From the NCBI RefSeq assembly GCF_046105845.1, contig NZ_CP151004.1: DNA of 64,000 nucleotides; one strand, 5' to 3'. This document shows positions 9,920-60,916 of this stretch, one piece after another. The notes under the pieces are model-generated. The model was not told the DNA's origin. It ran no database searches and saw only the letters and a program-made list of their open reading frames with translations. The stretch is from Escherichia coli (lineage in GTDB: Bacteria > Pseudomonadota > Gammaproteobacteria > Enterobacterales > Enterobacteriaceae). Within the stretch, counting starts at the first letter, position 1. Every line of letters begins with the position of its first letter. A program made the translations under genes and the position numbers.

Positions 9920-9984
9920 AGAATCATATGCAGCGACCGGTTTTTTAAGCAATGTTTCCATATGAGTTAAAAGCACATTTTATT

Positions 9985-10140
9985 TCACGATTGTATATTC
10001 TTAGTGAAGATTAATTTATCCTCACCAACATCATAGTAATTGCGTATTATAGCTTCATTGATAAAGCCCTGTTTTGTATAAAATGCGCGGGCGGCACTAA
10101 AATCGATATGGCTGGAGGTCTCTACTAAAAGTAGTCTTGC
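9985..10140 (-). pseudogene. GNAT (RimI-like) acetyltransferase, C-terminal remnant only
   Basis: Minus-strand open frame without start codon translates to ...RLLLVETSSHIDFSAARAFYTKQGFINEAIIRNYYDVGEDKLIFTKNIQS*, matching the C-terminal acetyl-CoA-binding end of RimI-like GNATs; lies in an AT-rich tract. Confidence 0.45.
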
Positions 10141-10531
10141 GTGATTGGGACAGGTCAAGAAAAAGCAGTTTTGCAGTTTTTTATTTCAGGGCACAGTTGC
10201 GAAAATTGAATCCCTTATGGACTAATGTGAGAAAATTCCGAGGTATGACTGTTTTGATATAGTGGACAATCAAGCGTCTCGAATTAACAATGAATTTCAG
10301 GTGCCAAGCCTTACAATTTGTAGCATGACGGATATAGGACAACATTAGGAAATCGGACAGAAAATTCATCATAATAAAATGACAACTTATCTCTTTCTCT
10401 CACTTTCTGAGAAATTTCACAAAAGTATAAACTAAGCCAATATGCCTTTATATATAAAAAATACTCATGCTTATTTTTATCGGAAAAATCCAAAATTTTG
10501 TCAAGACCATCAAAAATATCTTTATCATGAT

Positions 10532-11448
10532 CTATATGTACTCTTGATGATGGATCGCTGTGGCGAACTTTTCTGCGGTTAAATCAGCAGAACTGATATA
10601 ATATCTGACCGTCATTTCTGGCTCTTTCTTTTGTTCTGCTATTATGGACCGAAAGGAGACTGCAACGCATAATTTCTTCAGTCCTTTCCATTCAAACGTG
10701 AAATCAATAAGTTCATCAGGGACATCGCAAACAATATGAAGACGGATTTCTTCTCTGCCGTGACTCTTTTCACTAATGGCGTAACTGTCATGTTCTGGAT
10801 TATTTAATTCTTTCAGTGGAAATTTTTCCTCAAAGGCTTTATTAAGCCGCCCCTGATTTCCTTTTACAGCGAATAAATAATCACCGCCCTGTTTTGTATC
10901 TTCTCTGCAATATCTTTCTGGCAACCCATCGCATCAGTTGTGATGATTTTTCCTTTAATATCCAGCATGTTAAGAAGTTCAGGGATAGCTGTAATTTCAT
11001 TGGATTTCTCATCCGTCCTGATCTGTCCGATGACCAGACTGTGCATTGTTGAGAACGCACTAATGACATGAATCGCTCCCTTGCGGCGACTCTTGTCATA
11101 AGAATGCCGGAGTGTTTTTCCATCAATTGCGATGACGTCTTTATCATCTGAAGAATGGCAGTCACGCATCCAGTTAATAAAGCACTCGTGAAATTTTGCA
11201 GGACTGATACAGGATACAACTCTGGCAATGGTATCGTGAACAGGAATACCATTATCAAAATTACCATATTGCTTCAAAAAATCGAGATGTGTTTCCCCAA
11301 AATCCTCTATATCTTCCCAGCCTTCTGCACCCGAAATAACGGCACAAATAGTCAACAGTAGAATATCCGATAATTTATGTTCCACTTTCCAGGCTTGTCT
11401 GTAATCGGGGATAATAGAAATATGTCCCATCAATTTTTTAAGTTCCAT
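10532..11448 (-). mobile_element. H-repeat-associated (ISAs1-family) transposase pseudogene, frameshifted and 3'-truncated (YdcC-like)
   Basis: Two overlapping minus-strand ORFs (10864..11448 and 10532..10924) together read [32 protein letters not shown]... and ...[27 protein letters not shown]..., characteristic of H-repeat proteins; a frameshift near 10890-10920 and loss of about the last 75 codons; surrounded by AT-rich sequence. Confidence 0.8.
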
Positions 11449-11836
11449 TTTGTTCTCCTTAATTATGTAAGGAGTATTTGATCATGTATAAGCAATAAAA
11501 ACAGCTTCAGGAAATAAGGAATATCGCAATTTTTAAACATAAAATGCGAATCGTTCAATACAAAAAAGCAGCGTTGCGTAATCTTTCCCTGATTAAATAC
11601 GCTACCGCCCTACCCTGATGACATGATCTGCACTGCACTATCATATCGACATGTTTCTCTACATGCGAAAAGATGTTTTATTTTTGGATTATATTAAATT
11701 GATATTTCATATAAAAAACGAAATTACATCAATCATATAAATAGTTGTACCAACTTTAATTACTATTCATAGCAAACAAATGGATATCCAGTTAACTACG
11801 CCAGTGATTCATTAACATTAACCTCCGGCATTATTG

Positions 11837-12454
11837 TTAAATAATTTCATTCCTTTTTAATACTTCTTGTAATTTCGGTAACTGACATACAGCATCAGCA
11901 ATCGCACTGATATTCGTAGCATTATCCTGAAACCATTCATGCCCCGGCCCCCATGTGCGCATGGTGCAGAGATAACAGTCCACCAGCGTTAGTTGCTCAC
12001 CAAAGGCATAAGGTTCAGCGGTCAATTGTGAATTCAGCCAGATATAAAGCGATTTGCGATATTCAATTACATTCCTCTTTAACTGTTCAGGCGCGTCAGG
12101 AGCCCAACGCTCAGGGTAATCGGCGAAAGTGAATGTTGGATAGACATTAGCAACCAGCCAGACCAATAGCCGTTGAAACTGCTGACGTTCGGCGCGCCCA
12201 AGCGGTGGCGCAAGGTCCGGGCGACGATCGAGAACCATCAATGCAATCGCCGCTGTCTCCGTCATAATCTCGTCATTTTCCAGCGCCAGTGTCGGAATCT
12301 GACACAACGGGTTCAGGGTTTTCAATAACTCGCGTGAAGTTCCCTCGTGGTCAAAACCACTGACATCAACGAACTGATAAGGAATATCAGCCAGTGTTAG
12401 CATCAGCTCACTGATTGTAGAGCCCCATCCGGGTACGCCATACACCTTAATCAT
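11837..12454 (-). CDS. yncG: glutathione S-transferase-like protein
   Basis: 205-aa ORF with GST N- and C-terminal domain features; synteny upstream of ansP. Confidence 0.85.
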   Translation of the reverse strand: MIKVYGVPGWGSTISELMLTLADIPYQFVDVSGFDHEGTSRELLKTLNPLCQIPTLALENDEIMTETAAIALMVLDRRPDLAPPLGRAERQQFQRLLVWLVANVYPTFTFADYPERWAPDAPEQLKRNVIEYRKSLYIWLNSQLTAEPYAFGEQLTLVDCYLCTMRTWGPGHEWFQDNATNISAIADAVCQLPKLQEVLKRNEII

Positions 12455-20821: not shown

Positions 20822-21055
20822 TCAGAGGATGGTGCCACCTTTGGTTAACTGTTCGTGGCGCGCTTCCATATCTTCTTTATGCTTGCGACCGTGATGGGCG
20901 ATCGCTGTGCGCAGACGCTGCTGCTGGGTGTAGCGATCTTCCCGACTTAACTCCGCGTCATCGCTCAGGGCGATTAATAATTCGTTCATATGGGCAATGA
21001 CGCTCTCTTCAATCGCGGCATCCACGCGCGCGATGACTTCATCCAGATGCGACAT
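20822..21055 (-). CDS. ydcY: small uncharacterized protein
   Basis: 77-aa ORF in conserved position; acidic/helical. Confidence 0.7.
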   Translation of the reverse strand: MSHLDEVIARVDAAIEESVIAHMNELLIALSDDAELSREDRYTQQQRLRTAIAHHGRKHKEDMEARHEQLTKGGTIL

Positions 21056-21604: not shown

Positions 21605-21700
21605 TGTAGTGATTTTGCACGCAGCACGTACTGTCAGAGAAATCAGTGCTCTGACAGTACGCAAGATCTTCTCATACTCTTACGATCTGCAATATTATCC

Positions 21701-23125
21701 TTAATGTTTAACCATGACGTGGCGGACGACGGTGTAATCCTCCAGCCCATAAAGTGACATATCCTTGCCGTAACCAGAAAGTTTCTGCCCACCGTGCGGC
21801 ATTTCACTTACCAGCATGAAATGGGTATTGACCCAGGTACAACCATATTGCAGCCGCGCGCTGACGCGATGCGCCCTGCCCACATCTTTCGTCCATACCG
21901 AGGATGCAAGTCCGTACTGGCTGTCATTTGCCCAGTTTACCACCTGTTCTTCATTGTCGAAGAGCGTAACACTCACTACCGGACCAAATACCTCTTTTTG
22001 CACGATGGCATCGTCCTGTAATGCGCCAGCCAGTAGCGTCGGCGCATAGTAATAGCCATTACCCTTGCGCTTTTCACCGCCAGTGATCACTTTGATGTGC
22101 CCTGTCGCTTTCGCCTCTTCTACTGCCTTGCTGACGCGTTCGAGATGCGCCAGCGAGCTTAAAGGTCCAAGCTCCGTAGACTCGTCATCCGGCGCACCAG
22201 ATTTTAACGTTGCCACCGCAGCACCCAGTTTTTCCACCAGCGTATCGTAAATGCCTTTTTGCGCGTAGATCCGACAAGCCGCAGTACAATCCTGTCCGGC
22301 ATTGTAATAGCCAAATGTACGTACACCTTCGACCACTGCTTCAATATCCGCATCATCAAAAACAATCACTGGCGCTTTGCCACCAAGTTCCATATGAGTA
22401 CGCTTAATGGAGGGCGCGGTATGGCTGATGATATGCTCGCCGGTGGCGATAGAGCCCGTCAGCGACACCATCCGCACTTTGGGATGACCGGTCAGCGGAT
22501 CGCCCACCGTTTTGCCTCTGCCAAACAGTACGTTAATCACGCCTGCCGGGAAGATATCTTTCGCCAGCTCTGCCAACTTCAACGCGGTCAGCGGGGTAAT
22601 TTCTGATGGTTTAAGCACTACACAGTTCCCTGCCGCCAGCGCCGGAGCCAGTTTCCACGCGGCCATCATCAGCGGATAATTCCACGGTGCGATCGAAGCC
22701 ACGACCCCCAACGGATCGCGACGGATCATCGAAGTATGACCTTCAAGATATTCACCTGCCGCCAGACCATTCAGACAGCGCGCCGCACCAGCGAAAAAGC
22801 GAAAAACATCGACAATCGCCGGGATTTCATCATTGAACGCACTATGCAGCGGTTTGCCACAATTACGGGACTCCAGTTCGGCGAAAACCTGACCATTTTC
22901 TTCGATAACATCAGCCAGTTTCAGCAGACATTCCGCACGCACTTTCGGCGTGGTTTGCCCCCATTCGGCAAATGCTGCATCTGCCGCGCGCACAGCAGCA
23001 TCGACCTGCTCTGCGGATGCCTCGGCAATCTCCAGTAAAACGTCCCCCGTTGCCGGATTATAGACAGGCTGTTTTTCCCCTTCGCCGCTAACCAGTTCTC
23101 CGTTAATCAGTAACTTATGTTGCAT
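21701..23125 (-). CDS. patD: gamma-aminobutyraldehyde dehydrogenase (aldehyde dehydrogenase family)
   Basis: 474-aa ORF with ALDH catalytic Cys/Glu motifs; follows ydcSTUV in the same orientation. Confidence 0.9.
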
Positions 23126-28778: not shown

Positions 28779-29019
<241 letters not shown>

Positions 29020-32177: not shown

Positions 32178-33350
32178 ATGCGTCTGTTTTCTATTCCTCC
32201 ACCCACGCTACTGGCGGGGTTTCTGGCGGTATTAATTGGCTACGCCAGTTCAGCGGCAATAATCTGGCAAGCAGCGATTGTCGCCGGAGCCACCACTGCA
32301 CAAATCTCTGGCTGGATGACGGCGCTGGGGCTGGCAATGGGCGTCAGTACGCTGGCTCTGACATTATGGTATCGCGTACCTGTTCTCACCGCATGGTCAA
32401 CGCCTGGCGCGGCTTTGTTGGTCACCGGATTACAGGGACTAACACTTAACGAAGCCATCGGCGTTTTTATTGTCACCAACGCGTTAATAGTCCTCTGCGG
32501 CATAACGGGACTCTTTGCTCGTCTGATGCGCATTATTCCGCACTCGCTTGCGGCGGCAATGCTTGCCGGGATTTTATTACGCTTTGGTTTACAGGCGTTT
32601 GCCAGTCTGGATGGTCAATTTACGTTGTGTGGCAGTATGTTGCTGGTATGGCTGGCAACCAGGGCCGTTGCGCCGCGCTATGCGGTAATTGCCGCGATGA
32701 TTATTGGGATCGTGATCGTTATCGCGCAAGGTGACGTTGTCACAACTGATGTTGTCTTTAAACCCGTTCTCCCCACTTATATTACCCCTGATTTTTCGTT
32801 TGCTCACAGCCTGAGCGTTGCACTCCCCCTTTTTCTGGTGACGATGGCATCGCAAAACGCACCGGGTATCGCAGCAATGAAAGCAGCTGGATATTCGGCT
32901 CCTGTTTCGCCATTAATTGTATTTACTGGATTGCTGGCACTGGTTTTTTCCCCTTTCGGCGTTTATTCCGTCGGCATTGCGGCAATCACCGCGGCTATTT
33001 GCCAAAGCCCGGAAGCGCATCCGGATAAAGATCAACGTTGGCTGGCAGCTGCCGTTGCCGGCATTTTCTATTTGCTCGCAGGTTTGTTTGGTAGTGCCAT
33101 TACCGGGATGATGGCTGCCCTGCCCGTAAGTTGGATCCAGATGCTGGCAGGTCTGGCGCTGTTAAGTACCATTGGCGGCAGTTTGTATCAGGCGCTGCAT
33201 AATGAGCGTGAGCGAGACGCGGCGGTGGTGGCATTTCTGGTAACGGCAAGTGGATTGACGCTGGTCGGGATTGGTTCTGCGTTCTGGGGATTAATTGCCG
33301 GAGGCGTTTGTTACGTGGTGTTGAATTTAATCGCTCACAGAAACCGATAA
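32178..33350 (+). CDS. ydcO: BenE-family membrane transporter
   Basis: Track ORF 32121..33350; start at MRLFSIPPPTLLAG... gives 391 aa; polytopic membrane protein. Confidence 0.85.
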   Translation: MRLFSIPPPTLLAGFLAVLIGYASSAAIIWQAAIVAGATTAQISGWMTALGLAMGVSTLALTLWYRVPVLTAWSTPGAALLVTGLQGLTLNEAIGVFIVTNALIVLCGITGLFARLMRIIPHSLAAAMLAGILLRFGLQAFASLDGQFTLCGSMLLVWLATRAVAPRYAVIAAMIIGIVIVIAQGDVVTTDVVFKPVLPTYITPDFSFAHSLSVALPLFLVTMASQNAPGIAAMKAAGYSAPVSPLIVFTGLLALVFSPFGVYSVGIAAITAAICQSPEAHPDKDQRWLAAAVAGIFYLLAGLFGSAITGMMAALPVSWIQMLAGLALLSTIGGSLYQALHNERERDAAVVAFLVTASGLTLVGIGSAFWGLIAGGVCYVVLNLIAHRNR

Positions 33351-37999: not shown

Positions 38000-39655
38000 T
38001 TAACTCATCACGCGGTCGTCAACATACTGACGTTTATCCGGCGCTGGCGGGAAATACTGATACAGCCATGTTTCACTGATAGCGTCGCCCTGACAACGCA
38101 GATACATCCGCATATCGACCGGATCAGTGGAGTCCGAAGTCGGATACCAGTCAAACTGAATACGATAACCATCAATGGGTTCAATATAGAGAATTTCGAT
38201 TTGCTTCGCTTCCCCACTGGAAAGCGTAATCACCGGCTCAATGCCTTTTGGTGCGGCAGCTTTCAGATCACCACCAACGAAATCGACGGCAAAACGACGC
38301 GCCCATTTTTCGGGATAGTGTTCACCTGGCGCCCAACCTTCCGGGAAACCGCCCATGCCGGTACGCGTCGCCATAACGCGCGCTAATGGGCAATGAACAG
38401 GCGGTTGCCCACTCCAGTACAGACGATACTGGAATGCAAACTCATCACCCGCTTTTACAGCTTTTTCTGGCTGCCAGAAGCAGACAATGTTATCCAGCGT
38501 TTCGCCCGTTGTTGGGATTTCCATCAGGCCGATGGTGCCCTTACCCCACTTGTTACGCGGTTCCACCCACAGACTTGGGCGTTTGTTATACCAGCCCATA
38601 ATGTCCTGATAATGAGAGAAATCACGATCCAGTTGCAATAAACCAAACCCTTTCGGGTTGTTGTCGGTGTAAGCATTGAACTGCAATTTTTGCGGATTGT
38701 TCAGCGGACGGCAAATCCACTCGCCGTTGCCCCGCCACATGGACAGACGATCAGAGTCATGGATTTGCGGATGAATGGTGTCGCACATCCGACGTTCATT
38801 AGTACCGCAGCTGAACATGCTGGTCATCGGCGCAATGCCCAGCTGTTTAATGTCTTTGCGCGCATACAGGTGATTTTCCACATCCATAATCACCTGACTT
38901 TTCTCACAATGGATAGTGAACTTATAGGCACCAGTAATGCTGGCGCTATCGAGCAACGCATAAACGGTAAAGGTGGTTGCCCCCGGTTTTACCGTATCAA
39001 ACCAGAAGGCGGTAAAGTCGGGGAATTCTTCTTTACTGTCGGTGTAAGTGTCGATCGCCAGGCCGCGAGCCGATAGACCGTATTGATATGTATCATCAAC
39101 CGCGCGGAAATAACTCGCGCCGAGGAATGATACGACATCACGGCGCGCCAGTTCGGGGGCTTTAAACACGCGAAAACCGGCAAAACCGAGATCACTTTGC
39201 CCTTCTAATTGTTTGGTATCAACACCCGCATCGTTGTATTTGAACAACTCCGGGCGAAAGTGAATTTCACGCGCCAGATGTGTTGCGGGATCAACAGAAA
39301 ACATACGAACGCGGCGACGGAATCCCATTCCCATATGGAAGAACTGAGCGTCCAGTTGACGGTTCTCAACGTTATGCCAGAGCGATTTTTCGGCGTCGTA
39401 TTGAATACTGTTATAAGCCTGCGGCGTCATTGTCGCCAGAGTGTCAGGTAACGGACGCGGCGCACCACGCCACGCGGTTTGCGCTAAGTCGTGCGCCATT
39501 GACTGTAGAATGGAGAAGTCAAAACGCTGGGTTTGCCCGTCGGCAATATCAGAATCTGCCGCGAATGCCGCCTGAGAAAAAAGAGAAGCAATGCCGCTGG
39601 TACCGCACACGGCGGCCATAGCCATTGAACCTTTAATAAATCGTCTACGATCCAT
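38000..39655 (-). CDS. opgD: osmoregulated periplasmic glucans biosynthesis protein D
   Basis: 551-aa ORF with twin-arginine signal ([18 protein letters not shown]...AFA); MdoG/MdoD family. Confidence 0.9.
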
Positions 39656-48475: not shown

Positions 48476-49276
48476 TTAACGTAACGAGCGACTTTCCATC
48501 GCCTCGATGAGCACCGCATCGTGTTTCAGCGTTTGCCATGCATGGATGACTTCTGCCGGAAAATCAACGTGAACGATAAAATCTCGCCCGCGGGGACCGT
48601 AGCCATCGCTATCATCGCGTAAACGCGGCAGCTCGCCAGTGAGTAGTGAGAGATAACGCTCAACCGGCCATAATCCTTGCAACGGATTAACAAAGATTAC
48701 ACTGTCTGCGTTGTTTCCTAGCTGAGGAACGAATCCGGGATAACTTAACCAGCGTGGTGCATCGGGATTGTCCCCAGTCATACGGCGGAACGTCGCCATC
48801 GTGCGCCGCTGCATGGTGGGGTCCTGAACAACGATAGCCGTATGAACTCGTTCTACGGCCTGATTCAATAGCGCGATGCTAAAGCGTGCGTTTTCACCGC
48901 AGTTTGTTGACTGGTCTTCAATCCAGATTTTTTCATGCGGAATGTGCCAGAACTGATGAGCGATATCCGCCAGGATGGTCGCTTCTGCTCTGCCAGTGGT
49001 GCGGATAGTGTTGTAGTGCGGATGCTGTGCGATGGCACTATACAAAAAAGTTGTCGAGTGACCGATACCACCACTAATCAGTAGAGGAATTTGCTGATCG
49101 CGGGCAATCTTGCATGCCGCATCGATAGTTGGCATAACCGCATTGCCTGCAAGGATCACGCAATCGGCCTGATACGGCATCTCACCGGAGAAATCATCCT
49201 GCGCCAGCCACTGACCGATAACATTTATGGCATCTATGGTTGCCGGCGAAAGCGTCGGAAACGGGGTAATGTTCAT
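48476..49276 (-). CDS. ydcF: DUF218 (YdcF-like) domain protein
   Basis: 266-aa ORF; conserved position between aldA and hrpA. Confidence 0.8.
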
Positions 49277-49490
49277 GGTTCCTCCTTATCGTTCCCTTAA
49301 GAATACTGCGTGAGATAATAGTGAGAAGCGGAGCACTCTGAAAGGAGGAAGTCGTATTTCCTTAACCGCCACTCCGCAAGCCTGACATATCTTTTAAGGA
49401 AATGCTGTAGATAAACATTATTCATCTTGCAGCTGAGAATTGTATTTTTCTGAATTCCTGAATTTTTGCCCTTACCGTTTTAGAATTAAT

Positions 49491-49524
49491 AAAAAACCCG
49501 GCGCTAAATGCTTACCGGGTTTTA
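49491..49524 (-). terminator. intrinsic terminator downstream of hrpA
   Basis: aacccgg...ccgggtt hairpin; on the minus strand it is followed by a U-run. Confidence 0.6.
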
Positions 49525-49547
49525 GATTTATCAGGCAAATAGCAGTG

Positions 49548-52500
49548 TTAACCGCTAATCTGCTCCATCGCCTGCAAAATACGCTTATCTGAAATCGGAT
49601 AAGGCGTACCAAGTTGTTGAGCGAAGTAACTAACGCGCAACTCTTCTATCATCCAACGGATCTCTTTAACGTCTTCATCCTCACGACGTGCGGGCGGTAG
49701 TTTGTTGAACCATTGCTGCCACGCCTGCTGGACGTTTTCGACTTTCAGCATCTGAGCACGGTCGCGATGCGGATCAACCGCCAGTTTTTCCAGTCGTTTT
49801 TCAATCGCCTGCAAATAACGCAGCGTGTCGCCCAGCCGTTTAAAACCGTTGCCAGTGACAAAACCGCGATACACCAGCCCGCCCATCTGCGCTTTAATGT
49901 CAGAAAGCCCCAGCGCCATGGTCATATCCACCCGCCCTTTCAGGCGTTTGTTGATATTGAACACTGCCGTAAGGATTTGCTCGACCTGCTTTGCAATATC
50001 CACCACCGTGTCGTTCAGTTCAGCGCGAACTTTTTCATGCAGCGCAGCAAAGCCTTCTTCCGTCCAGACCGGGCCACCATTGGCGTCGATCAGTTGATCC
50101 ACACCGCAGGAGATACAGTCGTCGATCAGCTCCAGCACTTTGCCATACGGGTTAAAGTACAGCCCAAGTTTGGCTTTGTTTGGCAACTTCTCATGCAAGT
50201 ATTTGATTGGTGAAGGAATATTCAGCAGCAGTAAACGACGAAGACCGTTCCACATCGCTTGCTTTTGTTCCAGCGGGTTATCAAACAGTTTGATCGCCAC
50301 GCTGTCGCGCTCATCCACCAACGCTGGCCACGCCTTCACTTTGTAGTTGCCACGCTTCTGTTCGTAGCTTTCCGGCAGCTGACCAAAACTCCAGATATGT
50401 AAGCCGCTCTGCTCGATACCGTCATCCGCCACCGCAGACAGCGTTTCCTGCACTTTGCCTTTCAGAGCATCTTTCAGATCCTGTAATGAGCGCCCTTCTT
50501 TTAACTTCTTGTTTTTGTCATCCACCACACGGAAGGTGATTTTCAGGTGATCGGGCACCTGATCCCAGTGCCAGTCTTCGCGGTCAACGGTGACGCCAGT
50601 CATCCGCCGTAGCTCTCGTTCAAGACTGTCGAGCAACGGCAATTCCAGCGGTGTGACGCGGCCTAGAAACGCTTCGGCGTAGGTTGGCGCGGGCACAAAA
50701 TTACGGCGTACTGGTTTCGGCAACGATTTAATCAGAGCAATCACCAGTTCGCGGCGCAGACCGGGGATCTGCCACTCAAACCCGCTCTCCTCAACCTGGT
50801 TAAGTAACGGCAGCGGGATATGCACAGTCACACCGTCAGCATCTGCCCCCGGCTCAAACTGATAGCTCAAACGCAGTTTGAGATTGCCCTGATGCCAGAA
50901 GTTCGGGTAATCCAGCTTGCTGATCTTTTCCGCCCCTTCTTTGATCAACATGCTCTTTTCAAAGTTGAGCAAATCAGGCGTTTCGCGGCTGACTTTTTTC
51001 CACCAGCTGTCGAAGTGACGTGCGGAGATCACATCGTGGCTGATGCGCTGGTCGTAAAACTCAAACAGCGTTTCGTCATCCACCAGAATATCGCGGCGAC
51101 GTGTTTTGTGTTCCAGTTCTTCCACTTCGGCCCGTAGTTTCAGGTTTTCACGGAAGAATGCGTGACGCGTCTGCCAGTCACCTTCCACCAGCGCGTGGCG
51201 AATAAAGAGTTCACGACATAACGCCGGATCGATCTGGCTGTAGTTGACCTTGCGCGCGGCAACAATCGGCAAGCCATAAACAGTGACTTTTTCCGTTGCC
51301 ATCACCGCGCCCTGCGCCCGTTCCCAGTGTGGTTCGCTGTAGGTGCGTTTAATTAAATGCTGAGCAACTGGCTCCACCCATTCTGGATCGATGCGTGCCG
51401 CAATGCGCCCCCACAGGCGGCTGGTTTCTACCAGTTCCGCCACCATTACCCATTTCGGCGGCTTTTTGAATAAACCAGAACCGGGAAAGATGGAAAAACG
51501 CGCGTTACGTGCGCCGGTATATTCTTGTTTATCGGCATCTTTCATGCCGATATGGGAAAGCAAACCGGTCAGTAAGGCGATGTGAATTTCGCGATACTCC
51601 GCCGGTTCGCTGTTAACCGGAATGCCAAGTTCTTTCACCACCTGGCGCAACTGGGTGTAGATATCCTGCCATTCGCGCACGCGCAGATAGTTGAGATAAT
51701 CGGTACGACACAGGCGACGGAAGGCGTTAGAAGAAAGCGCCTTTTGCTGCTCGCCAAGATAATTCCACAGATTTACAAACGCGAGGAAGTCGGATTCTTT
51801 GTCGTGGAAGCGACGATGTTTTTCGTCCGATGCCTGCTGTTTGTCCATTGGTCGCTCACGCGGATCCTGAATGGAGAGCGCGGACGTGATAATCATCGCC
51901 TCACGCACGCAGCCATGTTTTTGCGCTTCCAGCACCATACGCGCCAGACGAGGATCGACAGGCAATTGCGAAAGCTGGCGACCGAGCGGCGTTAGTTTAT
52001 AGGCGCTGGCCTGTTCATCAGTGGTGATCGCACCCAGCTCTTCAAGCAGACGCACGCCATCCTGGATATTGCGTTTATCCGGTGCTTCGACAAACGGGAA
52101 CGCCGCGATATCACCCAGCCCCAGCGCGGTCATCTGCAAAATAACCGAGGCCAGGTTGGTACGCAGAATCTCCGGATCGGTAAACTCCGGGCGCGAGAGG
52201 AAATCGTCTTCGGAATAGAGACGAATACAGATCCCTTCAGACACACGACCACAGCGGCCTTTACGCTGATTGGCAGACGCCTGCGAAATCGGCTCAATCG
52301 GCAAACGCTGCACTTTGGTGCGATAGCTGTAGCGGCTGATACGTGCTGTACCGGGGTCGATAACGTATTTAATCCCCGGTACGGTCAGCGAGGTTTCCGC
52401 GACGTTGGTCGCCAGCACAATACGCCGTCCGCTGTGCGACTGGAACACGCGGTTCTGTTCGCTGTTCGAAAGCCGCGCATAAAGCGGCAAGATTTCGGTA

Positions 52501-53450
52501 TGCCGCAGATTTAGCTTGTTCAGCGCATCGGCGGTATCGCGAATTTCCCGCTCACCGCTCATAAAGATCAGAATGTCGCCTGGGCTTTCCTGACTCAGTT
52601 CGTCTACGGCGTCAAAAATCGCCTGCAGCTGATCGCGCTCGGTGTCATCGGCTTCTTCAACAATCGGTCGATAGCGCACTTCCACCGGATAGGTCCGACC
52701 GGAGACTTCGATAATCGGCGCATTATTAAAGTGGCGCGAAAAGCGTTCCGGGTCGATAGTCGCGGAAGTGATAATGATTTTTAGGTCAGGACGCCGCGGT
52801 AGCAACTCTTTCAAATAGCCGAGCAGAAAATCGATATTCAGGCTGCGTTCGTGCGCTTCGTCAATAATGATAGTGTCGTACTGCATCAGCAGGCGGTCTT
52901 GCTGGATCTCCGCCAGCAGGATACCGTCGGTCATCAGCTTGACCATCGTGTTATCACTAACGTGATCACTGAAACGCACTTTGTAACCGATGCAACCGCC
53001 CGGCTCCGTTTTCAGCTCTTCCGCAATACGGTTCGCCACCGTTCGCGCAGCCAGACGACGCGGCTGGGTATGGCCGATCAGCCCTTTAATCCCGCGCCCC
53101 AGCTCCATACAGATTTTCGGTAGCTGAGTCGTTTTACCGGAACCCGTTTCCCCGGCGACGATCACTACCTGGTGATCACGAATTGCTTCGAAAATGTCCT
53201 GCTTTTTCTGACTAACCGGCAAATTGTCCGGATAAGTGATTTCCGGTCGTGCCGCTTCACGCAGCAGGACTTTCCCTGCCGCATGGTCAATCTCTTTCGC
53301 CATCTCCTGGAAAATGGCCTGTTGTGCATCAGGATTTTTAACCTTCTTCACGCCGTGCAGACGGCGAGAAAAACGCAGTCTGTCGCGCAGCATCAGCGAA
53401 TCCAGCCGCTGCTGCAAGGCCGTAAAGGTCAATTTTTGTTGTTCTGTCAT
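49548..53450 (-). CDS. hrpA: ATP-dependent RNA helicase HrpA (DEAH-box)
   Basis: 1300-aa ORF with Walker A (GETGSGKTTQLP), DEAH motif (DEAHERS) and HA2/OB-fold C-terminal region. Confidence 0.95.
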   Translation of the reverse strand: MTEQQKLTFTALQQRLDSLMLRDRLRFSRRLHGVKKVKNPDAQQAIFQEMAKEIDHAAGKVLLREAARPEITYPDNLPVSQKKQDIFEAIRDHQVVIVAGETGSGKTTQLPKICMELGRGIKGLIGHTQPRRLAARTVANRIAEELKTEPGGCIGYKVRFSDHVSDNTMVKLMTDGILLAEIQQDRLLMQYDTIIIDEAHERSLNIDFLLGYLKELLPRRPDLKIIITSATIDPERFSRHFNNAPIIEVSGRTYPVEVRYRPIVEEADDTERDQLQAIFDAVDELSQESPGDILIFMSGEREIRDTADALNKLNLRHTEILPLYARLSNSEQNRVFQSHSGRRIVLATNVAETSLTVPGIKYVIDPGTARISRYSYRTKVQRLPIEPISQASANQRKGRCGRVSEGICIRLYSEDDFLSRPEFTDPEILRTNLASVILQMTALGLGDIAAFPFVEAPDKRNIQDGVRLLEELGAITTDEQASAYKLTPLGRQLSQLPVDPRLARMVLEAQKHGCVREAMIITSALSIQDPRERPMDKQQASDEKHRRFHDKESDFLAFVNLWNYLGEQQKALSSNAFRRLCRTDYLNYLRVREWQDIYTQLRQVVKELGIPVNSEPAEYREIHIALLTGLLSHIGMKDADKQEYTGARNARFSIFPGSGLFKKPPKWVMVAELVETSRLWGRIAARIDPEWVEPVAQHLIKRTYSEPHWERAQGAVMATEKVTVYGLPIVAARKVNYSQIDPALCRELFIRHALVEGDWQTRHAFFRENLKLRAEVEELEHKTRRRDILVDDETLFEFYDQRISHDVISARHFDSWWKKVSRETPDLLNFEKSMLIKEGAEKISKLDYPNFWHQGNLKLRLSYQFEPGADADGVTVHIPLPLLNQVEESGFEWQIPGLRRELVIALIKSLPKPVRRNFVPAPTYAEAFLGRVTPLELPLLDSLERELRRMTGVTVDREDWHWDQVPDHLKITFRVVDDKNKKLKEGRSLQDLKDALKGKVQETLSAVADDGIEQSGLHIWSFGQLPESYEQKRGNYKVKAWPALVDERDSVAIKLFDNPLEQKQAMWNGLRRLLLLNIPSPIKYLHEKLPNKAKLGLYFNPYGKVLELIDDCISCGVDQLIDANGGPVWTEEGFAALHEKVRAELNDTVVDIAKQVEQILTAVFNINKRLKGRVDMTMALGLSDIKAQMGGLVYRGFVTGNGFKRLGDTLRYLQAIEKRLEKLAVDPHRDRAQMLKVENVQQAWQQWFNKLPPARREDEDVKEIRWMIEELRVSYFAQQLGTPYPISDKRILQAMEQISG

Positions 53451-53641
53451 AACGTTAGTGGGCAGTAGGCTGCCTGATTAATTTTCTTTTAAATGATAGA
53501 TATAGAGTACCACATCGCGGCTTTCTATGCGTTGTTCAATAAATTCGAACATAGGCTTCGATTTATTGCGCTATCTCTGTGGCAGGATTGTGAATAAAGT
53601 GTCAACAAGCAACGGGGCATCGCCCATTCAAACATCTATAA

Positions 53642-54256
<615 letters not shown>

Positions 54257-54369
54257 CCGGACACGGTCTTGATGTGGACTGTAGATATTCAGTCCACATC
54301 TTAATCCGCTTACCTGTTTTCTATCGCTTTGTGCTCTTCCTTAAGCACAATCTGCGAGCGCCTGACTCG

Positions 54370-55230
54370 TTATTCTCGCGAAATACCATCCAACGTAGAC
54401 AACACTTCCTCAGAAAGATGCAATTTTTCAGCAGCCATATTCTCCCGTAAATGCGCAACAGAAGACGTCCCTGGGATCAGCAAAATATTCGGTGAACGTT
54501 GTAACAGCCACGCCAGCGCCACCTGCATTGGTGTTGCACCCAGGCTCGCAGCAACATCGGAAAGCGTGGAAGATTGCAGCGGCGTAAAGCCCCCGAGCGG
54601 AAAGAACGGCACGTAGGCAATGCCATCGCGGGCCAAATCATCAATCATTGCGTCATCAGCACGATGAGCAATGTTGTATTCGTTCTGCACACAGACGATT
54701 TCGGTAATCTTACGCGCCTCTGCAACCTGCGTCGGTGTGACGTTGCTCAGGCCAATATGTTTTACCAGGCCTTGTTGTTGCATCTCTGCCAGCACGGTCA
54801 GGCTGGCTTCAATCGATCCTTCCGCCGGGCCATGACCATCCCCCATCATGACGCGCAGGTTAACCACATCCAGTACGTCCAGACCGAGATTACGTAGATT
54901 ATCGTGCACCGCTTTTTGCAGCTCTGCCGGAGAAAATGCGGGCAACCAGGAAGCGTCCTCTCCACGCCGCGCACCAATTTTAGTGACAATTGTCAGGTCG
55001 TCAGAGTAAGGATGTAGCGCTTCGCGGATAATCTGATTGGTGACGTGCGGACCATAAAAGTCGCTGGTATCAATATGATTGACGCCCAATGCCAGCGCCT
55101 CGCGCAGCACGGTTATAGCAACGTGGCGATCTCTTGGGGGGCCAAAAACCCCAGGGCCTGCCAGTTGCATCGCGCCATAACCAAGACGGTTAACGGATTT
55201 TGTACCGAGAGTAAATGTGTTGCTGCTCAT
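54370..55230 (-). CDS. ydbC: aldo/keto reductase family oxidoreductase
   Basis: 286-aa ORF with AKR fold motifs. Confidence 0.85.
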   Translation of the reverse strand: MSSNTFTLGTKSVNRLGYGAMQLAGPGVFGPPRDRHVAITVLREALALGVNHIDTSDFYGPHVTNQIIREALHPYSDDLTIVTKIGARRGEDASWLPAFSPAELQKAVHDNLRNLGLDVLDVVNLRVMMGDGHGPAEGSIEASLTVLAEMQQQGLVKHIGLSNVTPTQVAEARKITEIVCVQNEYNIAHRADDAMIDDLARDGIAYVPFFPLGGFTPLQSSTLSDVAASLGATPMQVALAWLLQRSPNILLIPGTSSVAHLRENMAAEKLHLSEEVLSTLDGISRE

Positions 55231-55460
55231 CGCACCCTGCCCTGTAGTAAAACGGATTAAGAAAAATCAGTATAGAAACGAAAAGAGATAAATAATGCGA
55301 AGGCGTAAACAAGATTACTGGATGAGTTGCTCTATTGTCCTTGAAGACACCAAACCAAAACGCCTAAAGCATCGCATCCGGCAATAAAAAACCGCAACCT
55401 GTATCAGCGTTGCGGTTTGTGTATCACATGCTAAAAATTAGAACGTCCAGCATCAGGACG

Positions 55461-56051
55461 TTACTGTTTCGGTCGCAGATTCTCATCAAATACCAGGCGT
55501 TTCCTGCCAGGTTCAACTTCCCGCAATGGCTCGACTTGATGTAACGTCTGCTTACAGCGTGTCACCAGCACCTGGTACTCATGCGTACCCTGCTTTTTCC
55601 ATGCCAACTCCTGCTCACTGAGTTCACGAATCGCTTTCGCCGGGCTGCCGACAATCAGGTAATTAGCTGGCATTTCTGCTTTGGCTTTCACAAATGCGGA
55701 TGCGCCAACAATGCTGTTCTCGCCAATCACCGCACCGTCTATCACTACCGCGTTCATTCCCACTAATGCATTGCGGCGGATAATGCAGCCGTGAAGGATA
55801 GCGCTATGACCAATATGTCCATCTTCTTCCACGACAGTATCCTGCTCGGGAAAACCGTGCATAACGCAATTATCCTGAATGTTCGCGCCATTTTTCACCA
55901 CGATACGATCAAAATCGCCACGCAGGCTGGCATTTGGCCCAACGTAAACGCCCTTGCCGAGAATAACATCGCCGATCAATACCGCTGTCGGATGAACAAA
56001 ACTCTCTTGTGGTACAACCGGAGTCAGACCGTCTATCTGATAAATTGGCAT
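55461..56051 (-). CDS. paaY: hexapeptide-repeat (gamma-carbonic-anhydrase-like) thioesterase PaaY
   Basis: 196-aa [50 protein letters not shown]...; intact, although the rest of the paa cluster is not present in the window. Confidence 0.85.
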
Positions 56052-56179
56052 AACGCCTCCTGTTCAATATTCAAGCCGCCAAAACGTTGAAAATACAGGC
56101 TTCCCGGCGCAGGCAATTCACCGACCGAGGTTTCACCTTTTTCACTAACGAACGCTAAAGCAGCAGGCGCTACGCGCTG
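56033..56179 (-). pseudogene. paaX: paaX remnant: last about 48 codons of the phenylacetate repressor
   Basis: Minus-strand frame ends ...[49 protein letters not shown], the PaaX C-terminus; the N-terminal part of the track ORF (to 56326) is unrelated and is antisense to the feaR fragment. Confidence 0.7.
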
Positions 56180-56392
56180 ATAAAGTTTGCCGATAAAGGT
56201 TTGGTAGTCGCGCAATATATCCGTAACCGTCGTCTCGATTTTTGTGCAGATGCGATTCGCCATGCCGCAGATGATGAAAAACTGGCAGGCATTGGCTTTC
56301 ATTGGGGATTTTCCGACCAGAGTCATTTTTCAACGGTATTTAAGCAACGCTTTGGGATGACGCCAGGCGAGTATCGACGTAAATTCCGCTAA
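56159..56392 (+). pseudogene. feaR: AraC-family regulator remnant, C-terminal HTH only (feaR-like by position)
   Basis: Open frame begins right after a stop at about 56156 and reads ...DFCADAIRHAADDEKLAGIGFHWGFSDQSHFSTVFKQRFGMTPGEYRRKFR*, a typical AraC second HTH; no N-terminal domain; abuts the paaX remnant. Confidence 0.6.
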
Positions 56393-56563
56393 CTAATTCG
56401 CGTTGCATGTACAGCAACGCGAATTAGTTAAAACAGATATTTGACTATGCATTTTTCAGGGCGAAAGGCAATTTGACAGGAATTTTTGAATATTCACCTT
56501 GTTTCCGGAAAATAGAATAATCGCCTTCTCCTGTAGCGTTATCCCGATATTGCGGTTTTGCTA

Positions 56564-56890
56564 TTAAAATTTTCGCACCCATTTACCGTTTATCCCTTGT
56601 ACATATTCCCCCGGTTTAGCCCGAGCTACGAGCTTTTGCCCGGCGAGTTTCGCGATATCATCTACCGAGACATTATTTTGCTTTGCCAGTTGTTGGTAAC
56701 TCGCTTTACGTTCGGCATTAATGTCGTTTACTAATTTCTCTGTTTCAGCATCTGTTTTCAGCGCAACCAGATAACCATAAAATGTTTCCCCTACCCGCCC
56801 CTGAGTTCTGGCTTCATCCAGAGTCAATGCCATTACATTGCTGCTTACCAGCCCAACAAGAAACGCACAAAGAAGTAATGTTTTCTTCAT
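56564..56890 (-). CDS. ydbL: DUF1318 periplasmic protein
   Basis: Track ORF 56564..56971; start at MKKTLLLCAFLVGLVSSNVMA... gives 108 aa. Confidence 0.8.
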   Translation of the reverse strand: MKKTLLLCAFLVGLVSSNVMALTLDEARTQGRVGETFYGYLVALKTDAETEKLVNDINAERKASYQQLAKQNNVSVDDIAKLAGQKLVARAKPGEYVQGINGKWVRKF

Positions 56891-56897
56891 CATCGCC

Positions 56898-57083
56898 TCA
56901 AAAAAGATCGCTACGAGTCTCAAGCAGCTCTTCGACATCTTTGTCTGCCTTGATGATGATCTCATGCTCAATTTTAACGTTCATATTGATAGTGATTGGT
57001 TCCTTAGGTGCAGCGACTTCAATGCGAGGCGTACAGCCAACCAGCATAAAAGATGACGTCAACGCAGCCAGTAAAATTTTCAT
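56898..57083 (-). CDS. ynbE: small lipoprotein
   Basis: 61-aa ORF with lipobox (MLVGC); stop/start overlap with ydbH. Confidence 0.8.
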   Translation of the reverse strand: MKILLAALTSSFMLVGCTPRIEVAAPKEPITINMNVKIEHEIIIKADKDVEELLETRSDLF

Positions 57084-59719
57084 TGTTTTTCCTCACACTC
57101 TTTTCCTTGCGGACAGTCATTTCCCGGCAGACGTGCGTTCTGCTCCAACCATGCCTGGAGATTATCGCCAAAGCGTAAACTGCGCCACAGCGTAAAAATA
57201 TTCTCTTCGTGATGGTAATTAAGGTTTACCGTACCGCTTTTACCATCAACGCGACTGGTACCTGTAATGTTGGCCTGCATGGTTAATAAACCGAGATTAT
57301 CTAAGTTAATTTTTGTCGATGAACGGCTAATTTCCATATAGCGCAACCAGTTAATTGCTGAACCCGCAGTCATATTGTCTTTTACCACCGCATCAGCAGT
57401 GTCTTTATCCAGCCGCAAGGTCATTGGCCCGCTATTTGCCAGCCAACCATCTTTCACTATCCATTTTTCGTTGTTTAGCCATAACGGCAATGCACCACTA
57501 AATGCCCCGGACATGGCGAATTGTTTCGGATTGACGGCGCTAACCAGTTCGCTGGATGAGAGATTATTCAGCCGCAACAGCGCCGGGTCATGTTGCGGCA
57601 TACGTAATTGTTTCATCAGCACGTTACCGCCTAACACATCGACGCTAACATCAGTCAACAGCAATGGTTCTTCTTCAGTCCACGGATAACGCCCTTGCAA
57701 ATCAGCCGTAATATTTTTCGCTGTCACCAGATTAATCACTTCGGCAATTCGCAACGTAACGGGGCCGCGAGTCCCCAGATGCCAGGCTCCATCGGCAAAA
57801 CGGAAAGGCAGGACAAAATCGACACCGTTAACCTGATTATCTGGCATCCAGGCACTACCGCCTTTCAACACACCGTGCCCTCCCGCGCGGAATCCTTGTT
57901 CAGGCGCAGCAGAAAATGCAACCTGGGCATACAGTTCGCCATCGCGTAAGTTCATCTTCCAGTCGGGTGGCACCAGCGGCTGGAATACAGTTAGTGATTG
58001 TTTAGGCCACCAGGCGTTACCGCGCAGACGAATACCGTCCCAGCGACCATTTACCCGAACCGGGCCAATCTCACCAGCATGTAAATCGCCTTTAAAGAGG
58101 AAATACGTCGGATCGCGTCCATCGACGCTAAATTTTAAGGTTGATGGCGGTAACACACTGCCGCCAGTGAACAGCGTTTGCCCGGCGTCCAGTGACAGCG
58201 CGCCGCTAAAGGAGGGATGCTGTGCGTCACGTACCCAGACGACGGGCTTATCGAGAATTAGTCGCGGCTTTTCTACCGTCATCGTACCGTATTGTAACTG
58301 GTCGAAACCGGTGGAGAGATCGGTCAGCGTAATCGTGCTGTCATGCCACTCACCCTTTCCTGCGACATCCCAGGTGGCATTCATCGGTGTAAAACTGCCT
58401 TTTCCCCAGTAGCGCCACTGCCAGCGGCCAGCGTCAGGGAGAAAATCATTCGCCAGTCCATCCATATGCAGCACGAAATCGCCCAGTTCATTTTCATGCG
58501 CCTGCAAAATGGCCTGCAAACGTCCGTCAACACCACGTTGGGTGACTTTTACACCCGCTAAAGGCCAGCGGATTTCATCGATGTCCAGCGAATCGATGAC
58601 TCTTCCCTTCGAACGTAATAACGCGCCTGGCTCAAAGGCCAGCGTTGGGTCAGTCAGACTTCCGCTTAGCTGCGCAGGTAAACGGGCATATAAAATGAGG
58701 TCCGCCTGTTTCGCTTCACCGGTCAGTTGCATAGGCAGCTGGCTGTTATCCATGCTTAATTTTCCAGGGCCAAAATTAAGCACCGCGTTGCCCTTACCCG
58801 CTTGCCCCTGGGTCAGCACACTCAGTCGTCCGCTGACCAGAGCGTTCTCGAGCCCTGCCTGCCAGTTGTCGACTTTGACACCCAGTCGGCCACTCAAAGG
58901 AAAACCTGCATACGGCCAGCTCCAGCGACCATCGCTTACGGTCAATTGTTGACGAGTAATTTGCCACGGCAGATCGAGCAACGGATCACCGTTATCCTGT
59001 GCCAGCACAATCAATTGCCCGCTATTTTCCTGCCAGTCCAGCTCGGCATCCACCAGTGAAGGCTCCTGCGGCAAGTTTAACGTCGCAGTAGCATGACCAC
59101 TTACAGGAAGTCCATCCGGCACGAGCGGCATAGTAAATTCCCCCACCAGTTTAACCGGCGGCTGATTTTCAAACGCGACGACATCCAGTTCGCTGACTGT
59201 AAGTTGTTGCCCTTTCAGCTGGCCTTGAAATTTAACTTTTTCGCCCTGATAACGCAGTTGCTGGATATCAGAGGTTAACGCGAGAGAGAGTTTTCCCTGC
59301 CACTCCTGCCAGGGAGAAAAAATCAGTTTATCGATATTGATCCAGGTGTTAGGCAACATGGCCTGCCACTGCGCGAGGGTTTTTGGAGCGGCAGGCGATT
59401 GCTCCGTCTGCGGCAATTTCGCCAGACAAGCAGAATCAAGTTCTACCGTGCCGACGTTCAATAACCAGCGGCTGGGATGTGAAAGGCTGGCGTTGGTGAT
59501 ATGCGCAAGCTGACAATCTCCCACCAGATAACGGAGATCGGGGATGATTAAACCTTTACGCGTAATACGTGGGCTTTCATCTAATGCAATACGTGTCCCG
59601 AGCGGTAGCCAGATGCCCGCCAGCGTGGGAACCCACAAGCCGAGCGTCATCAGCAGCGTCAACGGCACAAGAATAATCAGTAATAACAGCGCGAGAACGG
59701 CTTTATTTTTACCCAGCAT
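57080..59719 (-). CDS. ydbH: large AsmA-like/DUF748 envelope protein
   Basis: 879-aa ORF with N-terminal TM anchor; first gene of the ydbH-ynbE-ydbL unit. Confidence 0.85.
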   Translation of the reverse strand: MLGKNKAVLALLLLIILVPLTLLMTLGLWVPTLAGIWLPLGTRIALDESPRITRKGLIIPDLRYLVGDCQLAHITNASLSHPSRWLLNVGTVELDSACLAKLPQTEQSPAAPKTLAQWQAMLPNTWINIDKLIFSPWQEWQGKLSLALTSDIQQLRYQGEKVKFQGQLKGQQLTVSELDVVAFENQPPVKLVGEFTMPLVPDGLPVSGHATATLNLPQEPSLVDAELDWQENSGQLIVLAQDNGDPLLDLPWQITRQQLTVSDGRWSWPYAGFPLSGRLGVKVDNWQAGLENALVSGRLSVLTQGQAGKGNAVLNFGPGKLSMDNSQLPMQLTGEAKQADLILYARLPAQLSGSLTDPTLAFEPGALLRSKGRVIDSLDIDEIRWPLAGVKVTQRGVDGRLQAILQAHENELGDFVLHMDGLANDFLPDAGRWQWRYWGKGSFTPMNATWDVAGKGEWHDSTITLTDLSTGFDQLQYGTMTVEKPRLILDKPVVWVRDAQHPSFSGALSLDAGQTLFTGGSVLPPSTLKFSVDGRDPTYFLFKGDLHAGEIGPVRVNGRWDGIRLRGNAWWPKQSLTVFQPLVPPDWKMNLRDGELYAQVAFSAAPEQGFRAGGHGVLKGGSAWMPDNQVNGVDFVLPFRFADGAWHLGTRGPVTLRIAEVINLVTAKNITADLQGRYPWTEEEPLLLTDVSVDVLGGNVLMKQLRMPQHDPALLRLNNLSSSELVSAVNPKQFAMSGAFSGALPLWLNNEKWIVKDGWLANSGPMTLRLDKDTADAVVKDNMTAGSAINWLRYMEISRSSTKINLDNLGLLTMQANITGTSRVDGKSGTVNLNYHHEENIFTLWRSLRFGDNLQAWLEQNARLPGNDCPQGKECEEKQ

Positions 59720-59926: not shown

Positions 59927-60916
59927 ATGAAACTCGCCGTTTATAGCACAAAACAGTACGACAAGAAGTACCTGCAACAGGTGAACGAGTCCTTTGGCTT
60001 TGAGCTGGAATTTTTTGACTTTCTGCTGACGGAAAAAACCGCTAAAACTGCCAATGGCTGCGAAGCGGTATGTATTTTCGTAAACGATGACGGCAGCCGC
60101 CCGGTGCTGGAAGAGCTGAAAAAGCACGGCGTTAAATATATCGCCCTGCGCTGTGCCGGTTTCAATAACGTCGACCTTGACGCGGCAAAAGAACTGGGGC
60201 TGAAAGTAGTCCGTGTTCCAGCCTATGATCCAGAAGCCGTTGCTGAACACGCCATCGGTATGATGATGACGCTGAACCGCCGTATTCATCGCGCGTATCA
60301 GCGTACTCGTGACGCCAACTTCTCTCTGGAAGGTCTGACCGGCTTTACTATGTATGGCAAAACGGCAGGCGTTATCGGTACCGGTAAAATCGGTGTGGCG
60401 ATGCTGCGCATTCTGAAAGGTTTTGGTATGCGTCTGCTGGCGTTCGATCCGTATCCAAGTGCGGCGGCACTGGAACTCGGTGTGGAGTATGTCGATCTGC
60501 CAACCCTGTTCTCTGAATCAGACGTTATCTCTCTGCACTGCCCGCTGACACCGGAAAACTACCATCTGTTGAACGAAGCCGCCTTCGATCAGATGAAAAA
60601 TGGCGTGATGATCGTCAATACCAGTCGCGGTGCATTGATTGATTCTCAGGCGGCAATTGAAGCGCTGAAAAATCAGAAAATTGGTTCGTTGGGTATGGAC
60701 GTGTATGAGAACGAACGCGATCTGTTCTTTGAAGACAAATCCAACGACGTGATCCAGGATGACGTGTTCCGTCGTCTGTCTGCCTGCCACAACGTGCTGT
60801 TTACCGGGCACCAGGCATTCCTGACAGCAGAAGCACTGACCAGTATTTCTCAGACTACGCTGCAAAACTTAAGCAATCTGGAAAAAGGCGAAACCTGCCC
60901 GAACGAACTGGTTTAA
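59927..60916 (+). CDS. ldhA: fermentative D-lactate dehydrogenase (2-hydroxyacid dehydrogenase family)
   Basis: 329-aa ORF with NAD-binding GxGxxG (GVIGTGKIG) and catalytic residues. Confidence 0.95.
   Translation: MKLAVYSTKQYDKKYLQQVNESFGFELEFFDFLLTEKTAKTANGCEAVCIFVNDDGSRPVLEELKKHGVKYIALRCAGFNNVDLDAAKELGLKVVRVPAYDPEAVAEHAIGMMMTLNRRIHRAYQRTRDANFSLEGLTGFTMYGKTAGVIGTGKIGVAMLRILKGFGMRLLAFDPYPSAAALELGVEYVDLPTLFSESDVISLHCPLTPENYHLLNEAAFDQMKNGVMIVNTSRGALIDSQAAIEALKNQKIGSLGMDVYENERDLFFEDKSNDVIQDDVFRRLSACHNVLFTGHQAFLTAEALTSISQTTLQNLSNLEKGETCPNELV

Follow-up and report, generated by a model that had tools for sequence, protein, structure and literature searches.

In the stretch of Escherichia coli chromosome analysed here, 64 kb in length and referred to as the window, a complete paaY gene stands beside fragments of two regulatory genes, paaX and feaR, and the remainder of the paa-tynA-fea locus is missing. 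This raises the question of whether the arrangement is a deletion scar, how such a deletion came about and what has become of paaY. Comparison with intact loci gives an answer of which we are highly confident: the locus is a deletion scar that goes back to a single old illegitimate-recombination event and is now segregating, with paaY left behind as a decaying passenger.

Relative to K-12, the window has the reverse orientation. The locus is preceded by hrpA (49548-53450, minus strand), azoR (53651-54256, plus strand) and pdxI (ydbC; 54370-55230, minus strand). These are followed by paaY (55461-56051, minus strand), which codes for a hexapeptide-repeat thioesterase of 196 aa. Beyond the paaX and feaR fragments, the minus-strand genes ydbL (56564-56890, start taken from the translation), ynbE (56898-57083) and ydbH (57080-59719) are found, and then ldhA on the plus strand (59927-60916). 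Over the 9 kb from 49000 to 58000, all complete E. coli genomes remain below 99% identity to the window. The best match to hrpA has 98.8% identity and is from two soil isolates, while the draft assembly GCA_026124145.1 has the same arrangement, including a second deletion between azoR and pdxI, at 99.2% identity. The window thus represents a less-sampled E. coli lineage.

Breakpoints, gene remnants and junction sequence

The breakpoints were mapped by BLAST against the paa-positive strain E. coli 55989. Two colinear blocks abut at window position 56184/56185; the left block stops at position 20953 of the 55989 locus (L002), within paaX, and the right block starts at position 38706, within feaR. 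The final paaX base is 56184 and the initial feaR base is 56185, with GCGCTGATAAA directly followed by GTTTGCCGATAAAGG, and the truncated 5′ ends of the two genes are joined head to head. A reading of the sequence alone had expected the junction at about 56180 and had advised alignment to a paa-positive genome, which indeed yielded the exact breakpoints. Relative to 55989, 17,752 bp are absent, covering the 5′ part of feaR, feaB, tynA, paaZ, paaA-K and the 5′ part of paaX. These are exactly the genes that the sequence-only reading had listed as missing, with an estimated length of roughly 17 kb, and the paaX-feaR deletion scar which it proposed is supported by the 55989 alignment and by partial PGAP annotations in other strains.

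The intact locus, feaRB-tynA-paaZ-paaABCDEFGHIJK-paaXY, is found in K-12, W and 55989 between the same flanking genes in the same order. There, paaY, the 3′ ends of paaX and feaR, and a hairpin adjacent to feaR are colinear with the window at 96-98% identity, whereas the intervening 17,752 bp are missing from the window. The flanks are homologues of paaX and feaR according to profile matches as well as alignment. The deleted 17.75-kb segment has no match elsewhere in the 64-kb window (E ≤ 1e-3), and paa genes were not found at another place within it. One old event would have removed the 17,752 bp between paaX codon 266 and feaR codon 233, both approximate.

The paaX remnant (56033-56184, minus strand) consists of the last 50 codons and the stop codon, corresponding to PaaX residues 267 to 316 or thereabouts. 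A paaX 3′ fragment had been recognized before, with a slightly low count of about 48 codons. It overlaps paaY by 19 bp, and its translation is identical to the PaaX C-terminus of 55989. Only positions 243-278 of the 279 positions of the PaaX model TIGR02277 are matched, with 24.2 bits against a cutoff of 264.55, and Pfam domains were not detected in the 50 residues. A PaaX repressor is a full-length protein with an N-terminal winged-helix DNA-binding domain; the remnant has lost this domain together with most of the protein.

The feaR remnant (56185-56392, plus strand) retains the last 68 codons and the stop codon, approximately FeaR residues 234-301. It covers positions 236-303 of the 303 positions of the FeaR model NF007243 (124.8 bits, cutoff 199) and positions 21-80 of the 80 positions of Pfam HTH_18, which is only part of the AraC-type DNA-binding domain. 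These matches bear out the earlier assignment of a C-terminal feaR helix-turn-helix on the strand opposite to paaX. FeaR as defined by NF007243 is full-length and combines an N-terminal sensing domain with a complete double helix-turn-helix domain, and the remnant falls short of this in each respect.

Two open reading frames owe their existence to the deletion. One has 97 codons (56033-56326, minus strand), with 47 codons antisense to the feaR remnant in frame with the 50 paaX codons; in the profile search its family match is limited to the part derived from paaX. The other has 63 codons and covers the feaR remnant (56201-56392, plus strand). In draft assemblies, gene callers give variable versions of the chimeric region with 60 or 89 aa. 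Nothing suggests that the two reading frames are genes; they are accidental by-products of the deletion. Both remnants and the 97-codon frame should be annotated as pseudogene remnants rather than as genes.

The search for microhomology or direct repeats at the junction, which the sequence-only reading had suggested, gave a mixed picture. Repeats longer than 13 nt do not occur between 55200 and 56700, and the strict microhomology is 0 nt. The hexamer AATGTT is nevertheless present at the break in both parental sequences as represented by 55989 (GATAAATGTTGATAC in paaX and CCGAATGTTTGCCG in feaR), and the junction corresponds to a recombination product within this hexamer, less one T. When 200,000 random breakpoint pairs within paaX and feaR were evaluated by the same rules, only 0.39% shared at least 6 nt. 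The hexamer is therefore probably meaningful, even though it was spotted after the fact. At the junction there is no IS element or IS end, with paaX sequence directly abutting feaR, and no recombinase site. Since the break falls at a shared AATGTT in the absence of an IS element, a long repeat or a recombinase site, we consider it likely that the deletion arose by RecA-independent, illegitimate, microhomology-associated joining, the enzymology of which cannot be read from the sequence. Against this mechanism it has to be said that the strict overlap is zero, and that the 6-nt interpretation, arrived at post hoc, demands the loss of one additional base.

The hairpin adjacent to the feaR remnant (56390-56430) had been described as a perfect 13-bp stem just after the stop codon. 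The hairpin is there, but its perfect stem is longer, with 17 bp (56390-56406 and 56414-56430) enclosing a 7-nt loop, and it begins on the stop codon itself. Its folding energy is -25.9 kcal/mol on the plus strand (z = -5.8), and an extended fold on the minus strand reaches -32 kcal/mol. The structure has the GC-rich stem of an intrinsic terminator. A U-tract is lacking on both strands, the stem being followed by AAAACAG in the plus-strand direction and by GCGGAAT in the minus-strand direction. By definition the hairpin is therefore not an intrinsic, Rho-independent terminator, and it was not called in a terminator scan. Paa-positive 55989 has the same hairpin at the same place, with one difference in the loop and one in the stem. 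An origin by the deletion, or any connection with it, could be ruled out for this reason. Judged by this comparison, the hairpin is native to the region between feaR and ydbL, two convergent genes.

Distribution and origin of the scar allele

The 1,200-bp scar region is fully covered in 258 of 5,426 complete E. coli genomes. A 160-bp query centred on the junction was covered in 259 of the 5,426 genomes (about 5%), and in 246 of those the identity was at least 99%. Not a single base of the junction differs between the window, E7-1N7 and the EPEC reference strain E2348/69. The scar is thus a common allele and not specific for one strain. Each sampled complete scar genome has a single place which matches the junction query, and we take this to mean that the sampled genomes do not carry a second copy of paaX or feaR. 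When the exact 26-nt junction sequence was searched in the GTDB representatives of bacteria and archaea, one genome for each species, it had no match, so the allele is found in no species representative.

In every scar record that was inspected, PGAP has annotated a 153-bp "PaaX, incomplete, missing N-terminus" and a 207-bp [quoted passage not shown]. In E2348/69 (O127:H6; NC_011601.1, E2348C_RS08255 to RS26835), the remnants have these same lengths of 153 bp and 207 bp, the junction is the same, and the locus has the same neighbours, being enclosed by pdxI and ydbL-ynbE-ydbH. This strain differs from the window in that paaY has lost its start and stop codons, in a divergence of about 6% across the segment from paaY to the paaX remnant, and in an ISEc13 between azoR and pdxI. 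The scar is an ordinary, common deletion polymorphism of a known accessory locus and is already annotated in RefSeq. An explicit description of this exact junction was not found in the literature, which treats the heterogeneity of the locus in general terms only.

Three other explanations of the junction were weighed. As the locus behaves like an accessory island between core genes (PMC4951805), the window might represent an ancestral empty site into which the paa-tynA-fea cluster was inserted in paa-positive strains. This was rejected, since the remnants align with positions inside paaX and feaR and match the sequence of the intact genes, which an insertion cannot bring about. That the junction is an assembly artefact is excluded by its presence in 259 independently finished genomes. 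We give practically no credence to either of these two explanations. The same deletion may also have arisen repeatedly if the two sites were a recombination hotspot, and this has somewhat more to recommend it. Over the 724 bp of paaY and the paaX remnant, haplotypes with the scar do not form a clade but are interspersed with paa-positive ones and have up to 44 differences (up to 6%); in addition, AATGTT is common to both parental sites. Nevertheless, we regard recurrence as very improbable. Every genome examined has the same junction down to the base, with the same odd missing T, whereas a recurrent microhomology event would be expected to retain AATGTT, and the other independent deletions at this locus break elsewhere.

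The invariance of the junction, with its one-base oddity, and the different breakpoints of independent deletions make a single origin followed by homologous recombination the simplest reading of the sequences. Because the paaY haplotypes linked to the scar differ by up to 6%, a single origin demands either great age or repeated recombination. Recombination is indicated by the interspersion of scar and paa-positive haplotypes. The PaaY protein of the scar strain CUVET19-1704 also has the same accession as that of the paa-positive strain GPEC403-625. The scar allele would have been passed on by descent and also transferred from one E. coli lineage to another by homologous recombination, which could either carry the scar into new backgrounds or replace the flanking DNA in strains that already have it.

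paaY without its operon

The earlier claim that paaY itself is intact has held up. Its product of 196 aa matches the PaaY model TIGR02287 over the full length (residues 3-195, model positions 1-192 of 192) with 370.4 bits, above the cutoff of 319.6. The gene retains its ATG start, an AGGAGG ribosome-binding site and its stop codon. It has also kept its native 3′ end, where a terminator-like hairpin with a T-run (55442-55462, minus strand) starts at the end of the stop codon and has a 7-bp stem with 4 GC pairs and the tail CTAATTTTTA. Compared to the PaaY of 55989 there are five changes (E15Q, G48D, D54N, M104I and Q184K), which sit at positions that are variable in solved homologues, the nearest of which align over residues 1-180. 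On the strength of this variability, the PaaY protein of the window looks functional. Residue G48 is hit twice in scar lineages (G48D and G48S), which was considered as a possible sign of inactivation or adaptation; this is unsupported, the residue being E in a solved homologue.

PaaY is also recognized by its location in the paa cluster and its co-transcription with paaX from Px, and here the cluster, Px and most of paaX have been deleted. Px drives the paaXY operon and is repressed by PaaX (PMC9493321). The thioesterase PaaY hydrolyses a by-product of the pathway, 2-hydroxycyclohepta-1,4,6-triene-1-formyl-CoA, and thereby disposes of a dead-end inhibitor of PaaZ (PMC9493321). Judging from the gene content, paaY would have lost the Px promoter, its operator, PaaX and the pathway that makes its known substrate. 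A sigma-70-like promoter was not found on the minus strand between the feaR hairpin and paaY; the only minus-strand candidates nearby are inside ydbL and inside paaY. Transcription of paaY would therefore be limited to read-through of ydbH-ynbE-ydbL across the hairpin, which is conceivable because the hairpin is without a U-tract on either strand.

In 5 of 7 scar genomes sampled from the complete-genome collection, paaY is intact as in the window. In E2348/69 (L004, 8927-9541) and A25 (L009, 6866-7480), its ATG has changed to AAG, the stop codon is lost, which adds 8 residues, and there are 8-9 further amino acid changes. PGAP keeps the gene in both strains as an intact PaaY of 204 aa which starts at the normal third codon, a non-ATG codon. 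Pairwise dN/dS values for paaY involve so few substitutions that relaxed and purifying selection cannot be told apart, except for the evident loss of start and stop in E2348/69 and A25.

It may be asked whether the orphan paaY is kept by selection, being expressed by read-through or from a cryptic promoter and acting as a stand-alone acyl-CoA thioesterase, in which case the scar would be a functional remodelling of the locus. Several observations are in keeping with this. Start, ribosome-binding site, stop and terminator are preserved in the window and in the five sampled genomes with an intact gene, and the exact PaaY protein of the window is widespread, occurring in 321 collection blocks that represent many public assemblies, with all six listed contexts being scar contexts. 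The window substitutions fall on positions at which homologues vary, the upstream hairpin without a minus-strand U-tract would permit read-through, and E. coli PaaY reportedly accepts a range of CoA esters (PMC9493321). The lineage of E2348/69 and A25, however, has lost both ATG and stop and has accumulated further changes. Other loss alleles truncate paaY, as does the common AH19F006-type, or have removed it, as in 98205 and O157. In a small sample, scar lineages have private non-synonymous changes in paaY more often than paa-positive lineages do. Finally, as CUVET19-1704 shares its PaaY with a paa-positive strain, intactness may simply reflect recent recombination or a short time since the loss. 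We therefore consider selection on paaY unlikely. It is more doubtful still that a paaY expressed by read-through is under selection and that the scar, having arisen once, has spread across divergent E. coli backgrounds because some hosts favour the loss of paa-tynA-fea with retention of paaY. On balance, we regard paaY as a slowly decaying passenger: it would persist without a known remaining substrate and would be decaying slowly in some of the lineages.

Other losses in the window and at the paa-tynA-fea locus

The comparison with 55989 revealed additional absences in the window. Between azoR and pdxI (54256-54370) there is a second deletion scar, where 7,046 bp are missing relative to 55989. 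Most of ynbD is gone together with ynbC, ynbB, ynbA and ydbD, and about 72 bp of the ynbD 3′ end have been kept; the junction has a 3-bp overlap, TCG, at 54367-54369. The same junction occurs in 142 of the 5,426 complete E. coli genomes. The ynbD-ydbD genes are missing from E2348/69 and A25 as well, although the spacing there is different. Between pdxI and paaY (55231-55460), the window is without ydbA, a large autotransporter gene, as is 55989. In K-12 it is located between paaY and pdxI as a pseudogene, and it is also present in 98205 and AH19F006 (6-8.5 kb). The 216 bp upstream of pdxI were considered as a possible ydbA remnant, which could be ruled out: no more than 9 nt of them belong to ydbA, and the sequence is that of the normal intergenic region between pdxI and ydbA.

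Further differences are found at a greater distance from the scar. A 422-bp deletion relative to 55989 (junction at about 29017) has removed hicA and the first 60 codons of hicB, and the last 78 codons of this antitoxin gene are left on the minus strand (28779-29017). At 33349/33350, the IS200/IS605 tnpA and insQ (tnpB) genes, which in 55989 occupy 1,743 bp between ydcL and ydcO, are absent. The vgrG/Rhs element of 55989 is absent from 9947-11839, where only an ISAs1-like remnant (10677-11566, 93% identity) is present. At 21700-21710, the window lacks a 1,313-bp segment of 55989 that carries a CatB-related acetyltransferase gene beside patD.

The paa-tynA-fea locus has been lost in other ways as well. 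The paaC-paaZ core is present in 3,179 of 5,426 complete E. coli genomes (59%), so that about 41% are without it. In the AH19F006-type allele, a 329-bp 3′ fragment of paaY is fused to a 252-bp 3′ fragment of feaR (L005, 6002-6580) beside a full-length ydbA; this allele makes up about 10% of complete genomes, as estimated from 4 of 40 evenly spaced sample rows. In strain 98205, ydbA directly adjoins ydbL and paaY is gone. In O157:H7, the match to the scar region is restricted to the 216 bp proximal to pdxI. In all three, as in the window, the same accessory locus has been lost between the same core genes (PMC4640556; PMC4951805), but the breakpoints are others and paaY is truncated or gone. The scar allele is one of several independent loss alleles.

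Such variation has been described before. Goldstone et al. described feaRB-tynA-paaZA-KXY, together with ydbA, as a heterogeneous genomic region that is flanked by the core genes ydbH-ynbE-ydbL and ynbC-ynbD-azoR (PMC4951805). Elovaara et al. found that none of 28 O157:H7 isolates, 1 of 6 EPEC and 3 of 45 UPEC were positive in a tynA PCR, and that a 33-kb region is missing from CFT073 (PMC4640556).

Judging from its gene content, a strain with the scar would not grow on phenylacetate or 2-phenylethylamine, and the PaaX repressor and the FeaR activator would be absent. This predicted inability is a common, lineage-variable trait of E. coli, and the scar matters little beyond correct annotation. 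The locus illustrates the repeated loss of an accessory metabolic island via different breakpoints, as well as the occurrence of a single loss allele on divergent haplotypes; both could already be seen in published pangenome work and in RefSeq annotation.
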